This document shows positions 12,881 through 13,152 of a DNA stretch of 32,000 bases, piece after piece. The position numbers and the translations under genes were made by a program. Origin of the DNA: Minisyncoccota bacterium. GTDB taxonomy: Bacteria; Patescibacteriota; Minisyncoccia; Minisyncoccales; Minisyncoccaceae. The stretch is taken from NCBI GenBank assembly GCA_041650175.1, contig JBAZLS010000003.1:39917-71916 (forward strand). Reading direction: 5' to 3'. Numbering within the stretch: the first letter of the stretch is position 1; each line of letters opens with the position of its first letter. The notes under the pieces are model-generated. The model saw only the letters and a list, made by a program, of their open reading frames with translations, was not told where the DNA came from and did no database searches.

Positions 12881-12904
12881 TTAGAAAAACCTTCGATTTC
12901 ATAC

Positions 12905-12936
12905 AAAAAAGAGATATCAAATCATATCTCTTTTTA
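12905..12936 (-). terminator. Duplicated copy of the tRNA-Arg terminator hairpin (distal)
   Basis: Stem AAAAAGAGATAT / ATATCTCTTTTT, loop CAAATC; identical to the copy at 13045-13076. Confidence 0.55.
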
Positions 12937-13044
12937 TATGTGCCCCCGGAGGGAATCGCCTTTCGGTATTTATCTGCTGATAAATCCTCAAGGCCTGGCT
13001 CGGACTCAGTCAGCCCTCCGCCTTCGATTCCCCTCTAATCATAC

Positions 13045-13076
13045 AAAAAAGAGATATCAAATCATATCTCTTTTTA
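13045..13076 (-). terminator. Rho-independent terminator immediately 3' of tRNA-Arg
   Basis: 12-bp stem AAAAAGAGATAT / ATATCTCTTTTT (13046-13057 / 13064-13075) with an integrated U-run on the minus strand. Confidence 0.6.
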
Positions 13077-13080
13077 TATG

Positions 13081-13152
13081 TGCCCCCGGAGGGAATCGAA
13101 CCCCCATCCGCGGTTTCGAAGACCGATACTCTATCCGTTGAGCTACGGGGGC
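13081..13152 (-). tRNA. tRNA-Arg (anticodon UCG)
   Basis: 72 nt. Acceptor GCCCCCG/CGGGGGC, D-arm GCTC-AACGGATA-GAGT, anticodon loop CUUCGAA, T-arm GGGGG-TTCGATT-CCCTC. One mismatch at the base of the anticodon stem. CCA not encoded. Confidence 0.85.

Follow-up and report, generated by a model that had tools for sequence, protein, structure and literature searches.

The 140-bp unit located behind tRNA-Arg(TCG) in the window (the whole 32,000-nucleotide stretch of DNA under analysis) is one copy of a gene-less, GC-rich, structured mini-element found on the 3′ side of tRNA genes. We infer that the family to which it belongs is probably selfish structured DNA that is maintained and amplified by recombination, and not an RNA gene. 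No description of this mini-element family was found in the literature, and it is apparently undescribed. The genome that holds the window (G000) is a 935,692-bp draft of 35 contigs with 46 tRNA genes and was compared with five congeners (G001 to G005) and with more distant relatives.

The tRNA-Arg(TCG) gene is carried on the minus strand at positions 13080 to 13152 according to ARAGORN and 13081 to 13152 according to Rfam (tRNA, 66 bits); it is intact, and its CCA is not encoded. When the surrounding 2 kb were scanned with a repeat finder, the perfect 60-bp repeat reported in the preliminary description was recovered, with positions 12899 to 12958 and 13039 to 13098 (both minus strand) found to be 100% identical over 60 nt at a spacing of 140 nt. 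The runner-up direct repeat of this region was 31 nt long at 74% identity. Between the two copies lies an 80-bp core, as had been described, and the whole unit amounts to 140 bp, within which no gene was found on reading both strands. From the tRNA coordinates it follows that the repeat holds the last 18 to 19 nt of the tRNA (starting at C56 of the T-loop) together with 41 to 42 nt of trailer; the proximal copy (13039 to 13098) thus runs from C56 to the tRNA 3′ end and on into a hairpin-bearing trailer, and the distal copy (12899 to 12958) was seen by both the repeat finder and the fold. Both copies contain an inverted repeat that is perfect over 12 bp and closed by a 6-nt loop (13046 to 13075 and 12906 to 12935), which in the proximal copy is AT-rich, flanked by an A-run and a T-run, and resembles a bidirectional terminator. 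A terminator had been placed between the tRNA and the core on this basis: the hairpin exists, but a consensus terminator scan passes over it because its stem holds fewer than three G-C pairs, so that its strength as a terminator is uncertain. No promoter-like site was found by a promoter scan on the tRNA strand between the hairpin and the core.

Read on the minus strand, the module opens with a 5′ arm (13026 to 13035) that is the antisense of the tRNA T-loop and of the 3′ strand of the T-stem. By minimum-free-energy folding, positions 13026 to 13033 form the 5′ strand of the closing helix P1, and positions 12950 to 12957, the first 8 nt after C56 in the distal repeat, form its 3′ strand; from copy to copy, the P1 pairs vary with the neighboring tRNA. 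Alignment and folding also defined two hairpins on this strand: (i) P2 (12997 to 13022), with a 3-bp base, a tandem G-A/A-G internal loop, a 5-bp stem and the conserved loop GACUG; and (ii) P3 (12958 to 12994), a long hairpin with a tandem G-A, a bulged A and the conserved loop CAGCAG. Beyond the distal repeat, the string CCTTCGATT at 12890 to 12898 was confirmed by direct reading to equal the beginning of the box at 13021 to 13035. The outer boundary of the locus is formed by a plus-strand terminator (12854 to 12874, by terminator scan and comparison) that is conserved in G002 and belongs to a small convergent open reading frame (12739 to 12855). This frame (plus strand) encodes a cysteine-rich protein of 38 aa with a weak match to DUF5651, converges on the tRNA-Arg array, and is present in G002, G001, and G005 and absent from the element-free G003 and G004.

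The orthologous tRNA-Arg(TCG) locus was recovered from all five congeners. No hairpin, arm or core was present in G003 and G004, while G002, whose flanking genes are about 77 to 80% identical to those of G000, carried the tRNA, the hairpin and an antisense arm of 13 nt, perfect and with AATCGAAGG at its end, followed by the flank seen in the window. One unit was present in G000, one unit followed by composite copies in G005, and three 151-nt units with 1 to 3 base differences in G001, where they are succeeded by a last segment of tRNA end plus hairpin and by a degenerate antisense arm. From this series, the array is best written as H-(core-H)n, with n = 0 in G002, n = 1 in the window, and n = 3 in G001. 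The 9-nt string at 12890 to 12898 (minus strand, AATCGAAGG) is orthologous to the lone arm of G002, and its match at exact register is not due to chance, since the congener has the same arm at the same place. Where this string had been taken as the trace of a third, truncated unit, sequence comparison with G002 and G001 indicates that it is instead the truncated terminal antisense arm of the last H, of the type that closes every array. The 60-bp identity is the direct repeat of H, and we conclude with high confidence that it marks an amplifiable unit of the family.

In this notation, H is a long imperfect palindrome made of the tRNA from its T-loop to its 3′ end, the hairpin and the antisense arm, and the locus alternates between H, the conserved two-hairpin core and H again. 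In the mechanism that we propose, as H is repeated in direct orientation, ordinary unequal recombination or replication slippage between its copies leads to the gain or loss of whole units. The perfect 60-bp identity then means that the one-unit state arose, or was homogenized by conversion, very recently; the difference in unit number among congeners at this locus agrees with the earlier proposal of a recent event or homogenization. Tandem amplification, likewise anticipated, was seen at tRNA-Arg, at tRNA-Val(CAC) in G000, and at tRNA-Lys in G002 and G001, with tRNA-Lys(CTT) followed by one unit in G000 and G005 and by two in G002 and G001. At tRNA-Val(CAC) of G000, an array of 118-nt units ends one contig and begins another; the perfect tandem copies extend over G000:C12:27399-27708 and G000:C18:1-135, and this array probably caused the assembly break. 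The number of units at tRNA-Arg could likewise be higher than one in reality, given that tandem arrays of the family break contigs of this draft. The same breaks, in an assembly of 35 contigs, are what could be said for tracing the repeat to an artefact of assembly or to a local duplication of no broader significance, but this is extremely improbable when the same architecture is encountered at about 20 other tRNAs of G000, at the orthologous locus of three congeners that were assembled independently, and in lineages of distant position.

With a covariance model derived from 18 copies, 46 matches were obtained in the 0.94-Mb genome of G000, and a profile search (nhmmer) yielded 40. Each copy consists, in order, of the antisense of the tRNA T-loop together with the 3′ strand of the T-stem, the two-hairpin core, and the tRNA in sense orientation from C56 on; in G000 the antisense arm extends at times into the acceptor strand, and in copies of the focal genus the sense arm frequently has a shortened or decayed acceptor part. 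The element measures about 90 nt with a cargo of about 65 to 80 nt, has a G+C content of 38 to 63% compared with 32% genome-wide, and is accompanied by a duplication that varies in length from 10 to 118 nt. On inspection of the region downstream of all 46 tRNA genes of G000, about 19 to 24 were found to have a copy behind them. Twenty-seven of the 40 nhmmer matches lie 20 to 360 nt downstream of a tRNA on the same strand and are distributed over 19 tRNAs; further occupied tRNAs were identified by the covariance model (Thr(CGT) and Leu(CAA)) or by eye (Ser(GGA), Leu(CAG), and Arg(CCT)). Within the window, sister copies are present on the minus strand behind tRNA-Lys(CTT) (11860 to 11947) and, with decayed arms, behind tRNA-Pro(CGG) (20913 to 21000). 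All but one of the tRNA-adjacent copies checked have the orientation of their tRNA, and a few copies are distant from any tRNA yet have tRNA-like arms. Many G000 copies are missing the hairpin between tRNA and module, half modules and lone arms also occur, and the tmRNA genes in both G000 and G002 lack a module. In a comparison by eye with the cores of the hammerhead, the K-turn/box C/D and group II domain V, the core of the element did not appear to fit at the junction strands. A tRNA with a T-loop intron was ruled out because in the tRNA-Lys copies the T-stem part of the 3′ arm is separated from its acceptor part by an insert.

Alignment of the 18 copies supported four structural elements, namely P1 (the two arms), P2, a short linker and P3. 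Of all cells, 86.7% were paired, compared with 31 to 50% when the partners were slid by 1 to 3 columns, and double changes were detected at 26 of 30 pairs; these values were reached by 0 of 500 shuffles. Double changes were found at 13/13 pairs of P3, covariation in P2 was seen at column 17/40 (GC 7, CG 6, AU 2, UG 1), and P2 and P3 were recovered independently by RNAalifold. When folded by itself as a single sequence, the tRNA-Arg copy adopted the same shape at −40.4 kcal/mol (z = −3.9), and the whole locus folded as single-stranded DNA gave z = −7.5. Compensation was observed where an arm departs from its tRNA, as in the tRNA-Leu(CAA) copy of G002, whose arms pair perfectly over 17 bp, and in the tRNA-Gln copy of the distant relative G184; such compensation by the opposite arm indicates that the constraint acts on arm-arm pairing.

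The strong structural covariation and the conserved loops GACUG and CAGCAG are points in favor of the main rival to selfish DNA, according to which the module functions as a non-coding RNA that is transcribed together with the tRNA or by read-through from it, and whose 3′ end mimics the T-arm, the acceptor strand and CCA. An RNA of this type could serve as a decoy, as a partner in processing or quality control, or as a regulator, and the DNA repeats would be a by-product of the upkeep of sequence identity between this mimic and the tRNA. It is further favored by the orientation of nearly all copies along their tRNA, by the many G000 copies without an intervening hairpin, and by the AT-rich tRNA-Arg hairpin not being called as a terminator. 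Helices selected as RNA normally tolerate G-U far better than A-C, however, and among 63 distinct copies from two genomes G-U was not significantly above A-C: the counts were 37 and 25, respectively, in P2 plus P3 (p = 0.16) and 26 and 27 in P1. With G-U about equal to A-C, an RNA-strand signature is missing; the symmetry fits hairpins that are important in DNA, or young copies that decay neutrally. The frequent decay of the acceptor part of the 3′ arm within the genus also speaks against an RNA mimic, as does the outcome of an Rfam 15 search over the module, in which no family, ribozyme or tRNA-like match was obtained at the gathering threshold or at E-values up to 10 (only tRNAs passed the gathering threshold, the remainder being chance-level miRNA models). 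On balance, we regard a functional RNA as rather unlikely.

Selfish DNA is better matched by the turnover seen between G000 and G002, the latter with 44 tRNAs and 39 copies in its whole genome. At tRNA-Asp and tRNA-Thr(CGT) the site is empty in G002 and filled in G000, with flank homology returning past the insert, and at tRNA-Asp the tRNA-proximal hairpin of G000 and the one present at the empty G002 site are homologous. At tRNA-Ser(GCT) the hairpin and arms are common to both genomes while the core subtype differs. For several cores the best cross-genome match was found at another tRNA, as in the case of G000 Ser(GCT), which corresponds to G002 Gln(CTG) at 86%, and of G000 Ile(GAT), which best matches the Ser(TGA) core of G002 at 89%. 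P2 and P3 assort independently among copies, the copy behind tRNA-Gln(TTG) of G000 has an arm of tRNA-Gln(CTG) type, and at tRNA-Arg(GCG) of G000 the core is inverted between unchanged arms. Presence and absence, core swaps and flips are properties of recombining, spreading repeated DNA. An RNA gene is not what one would expect when orthologous loci of genomes about 79% identical differ in whether they hold the element, in how many units they hold and in the type of core, nor from tandem arrays, lone arms, half modules, a flipped core and copies remote from tRNAs. The explanation at the DNA level that had been favored at the outset is a better fit than one at the RNA level to the G-U and A-C counts, the rapid turnover, the core swapping and the one flipped core. 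When metagenome contigs were scanned for the tRNA-Arg repeat, no exact match was obtained.

Two loci of this comparison were unusually alike. The cores behind tRNA-Lys(TTT) and tRNA-Leu(GAG) are 95 to 97% identical between G000 and G002, compared with about 79% for the flanking genes, and at tRNA-Lys(TTT) (G000:C7:25350-25480 and G002:C3:71164-71290) the hairpin spacer is about 90% identical as well. This likeness suggests recent exchange or unusually strong constraint. Among the tRNA genes themselves, ARAGORN reported one of undetermined type with a two-base anticodon at G000:C2:106219-106294, directly after tRNA-Ile(GAT); its G002 ortholog was called tRNA-Phe(AAA), and the odd gene is conserved in both genomes.

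The family was detected in 13 of 60 relatives, or 14 of 61 genomes when G000 is counted. Eleven genomes including G000 hold 17 to 56 copies and the three other carriers have only 1 to 2 matches; high-copy carriers are restricted to three genera of the taxonomic family. Within the genus, four of the six genomes hold 39 to 56 copies, and no copy was found genome-wide in G003 and G004, even by a search of higher sensitivity. The absence of the family from two genomes of the same genus and from most of the taxonomic family counts against a functional RNA. Among 150 genomes sampled phylum-wide, three distant carriers (G139, G184, and G116) were identified with 2 to 6 copies each, and the core loops and junctions were found to be conserved across classes of the phylum. 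The 10 distant copies examined are all directly behind a tRNA, and in all 10 the sense arm departs from the tRNA at no more than one position between C56 and the encoded CCA, after which similarity ends. One of them sits between two tRNAs of an operon and must therefore be transcribed. The conserved loops and junctions, this match up to the tRNA end and the operon-internal copy would in turn suit a functional RNA as well. A pattern scan of IMG/VR viral contigs returned only a chance match in GC-rich coding DNA.

The search for a mobilizing enzyme yielded no specific candidate for the recombinase whose search had been recommended. Reverse transcriptase (PF00078) had no match in the six genomes of the genus, so a retroelement origin (retron, group II intron, DGR or SINE-like) was rejected. 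Serine recombinases were discarded on the grounds that their occurrence is uncorrelated with the element, and IS110 and TnpB were rejected as mobilizers in that IS110 was absent and TnpB had no match above cut-off. One Xer-like tyrosine recombinase gene (PF00589) was present in 37 of 37 genomes (36 relatives and G000), whether carrier or not; being universal, its presence is uninformative. Two Y1/RAYT-like genes were found in G000, both under the NCBIfam cut-off, and Y1 genes within the taxonomic family occur mainly in carriers. As mobilizers these were rejected as well: one of the two is bordered by a different palindromic repeat of GAGGTCCGACCTC type, and no Y1 gene was found in five well-assembled carriers (G005, G017, G139, G184, and G116). 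We infer that the element is moved by host recombination and repair functions or by the single universal Xer-like recombinase.

Several other repeats and sequences were encountered during these searches. Direct copies of the GAGGTCCGACCTC-hairpin repeat (L037:1936-2010 and 2875-2965; G000:C1, around 91.4 to 92.5 kb) flank a Y1/RAYT-like gene of 241 aa, which has a Y1/RAYT-like paralogue of 253 aa 4 kb away; the 241-aa gene and this repeat may form a separate REP-RAYT-like pair in Patescibacteria. At about 2.5 kb of G000:C7, the Xer-like gene is followed by a terminator whose perfect palindrome, centered on GAATCGATTC, resembles an antisense arm fused to a sense arm without a core, which may be coincidence. 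In one module behind tRNA-Leu(CAG) (G000:C18, about 2160 to 2240), a 16-nt palindrome of TCCGCCAGCTGGCGGA type is present in the loops of P2 and P3; it recurs at several other intergenic sites within longer GTCATTGCG...CGAAGCAATC repeats and has the look of a further small hairpin repeat that likewise inserts at the tips of hairpins. Contig G000:C25 (8352 bp) has a G+C content of 58% compared with about 32% elsewhere, contains a resolvase gene, and is probably foreign DNA or bin contamination.

The Xer-like gene present in every genome searched would also suit a further alternative, in which the module is a miniature integrative element that undergoes site-specific recombination at the T-loop as a folded single strand and uses the host Xer-like recombinase. 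By analogy with attC and the CTX-phage attP, the arms would rebuild a double-stranded T-arm, and tandem arrays would result from repeated integration. The arms find a ready explanation in this model. The direct repeat begins inside the T-loop, which is reportedly a classic sublocation for integrase crossover; identity stops at the tRNA 3′ end in distant lineages; the arms pair even where they depart from the tRNA (17 bp at Leu(CAA) of G002, compensated at Gln of G184); and the very favorable fold of the whole locus as single-stranded DNA (z = −7.5) points the same way. Weighed against this, the universal recombinase is uninformative and would need to act on some 20 distinct core sequences, and conserved dif-like or attC-like boxes are missing because the arms are tRNA-specific. 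Moreover, the model in its simple form predicts a native hairpin distal to the element, but at tRNA-Asp the hairpin is tRNA-proximal. We therefore consider site-specific integration of this type distinctly unlikely.

The family shares features with four groups of known systems and differs from each. Like tRNA-targeting integrative elements and CIMEs, it flanks the inserted DNA with direct repeats that comprise the tRNA from the T-loop to the 3′ side, leaves the tRNA intact and accretes in tandem; the 60-bp repeat starts at T-loop C56, and the same design is found at about 20 tRNAs. Unlike CIMEs, it combines a gene-less cargo of about 65 to 80 nt with occupation of about 20 tRNAs per genome and an antisense target copy in each unit, and no integrase tracks the element, the Xer-like PF00589 gene being found in 37/37 genomes regardless. 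As in integron attC and CTX-phage attP sites, imperfect palindromes of about 60 to 80 nt alternate with short inserts, swapping at a fixed site is cassette-like, and a folded single strand, for which folding is predicted to be favorable, would recreate a duplex site. In contrast to integrons, IntI, attI and the R″/R′ boxes (RYYYAAC / GTTRRRY) are lacking, and only Xer-like recombinases were found; in contrast to attC, the arms are copied from the neighboring tRNA, and the conserved part is the insert rather than the palindrome. With REP/REPIN sequences and MITEs (Correia, RUP, and BOX), the family has in common that it is short, non-coding, multi-copy, hairpin-forming, intergenic, lineage-restricted and mosaic. 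It differs from MITEs in that its arms are site-specific and not constant, no parent IS was found, and the duplication of 10 to 118 nt has no fixed length, and from REP/REPIN in that tRNA T-loops are the target, and the RAYT-like gene is flanked by another repeat and absent from five carriers. A variable address segment beside a conserved structured scaffold is shared with IS200/IS605-derived PATEs and TnpB omega RNAs; unlike these, the family has no TnpB above cut-off and no correlation with Y1, measures about 90 nt, and contains both sense and antisense copies of the target.

Going beyond selfish DNA as such, we consider it unlikely, though worth stating, that the family is either (i) a new enzyme-poor, hairpin-addressed DNA cassette system; or (ii) a group of CCA-ending RNAs that mimic the tRNA 3′ end and act in tRNA metabolism or defense. 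In the cassette system, a palindrome made from the target T-arm would receive a copy of the core at its tip, so that the address would be written by the target itself, and the agents would be host recombination and repair or a single Xer acting on folded single strands. In practical terms, the arrays break assemblies at tRNA genes and could be mistaken for prophage or island att sites. Should the RNA reading be true, the family would constitute a new class of tRNA-end mimics. If the DNA reading is true, a gene-less, parasite-like element is tolerated in dozens of copies by ultra-small Patescibacteria genomes of less than 1 Mb, where it homes to the tRNA T-arm, the most conserved hairpin in biology, and leaves the tRNA unbroken; genome plasticity at tRNA loci would thereby gain a new route, and programmable, target-templated insertion a possible source.
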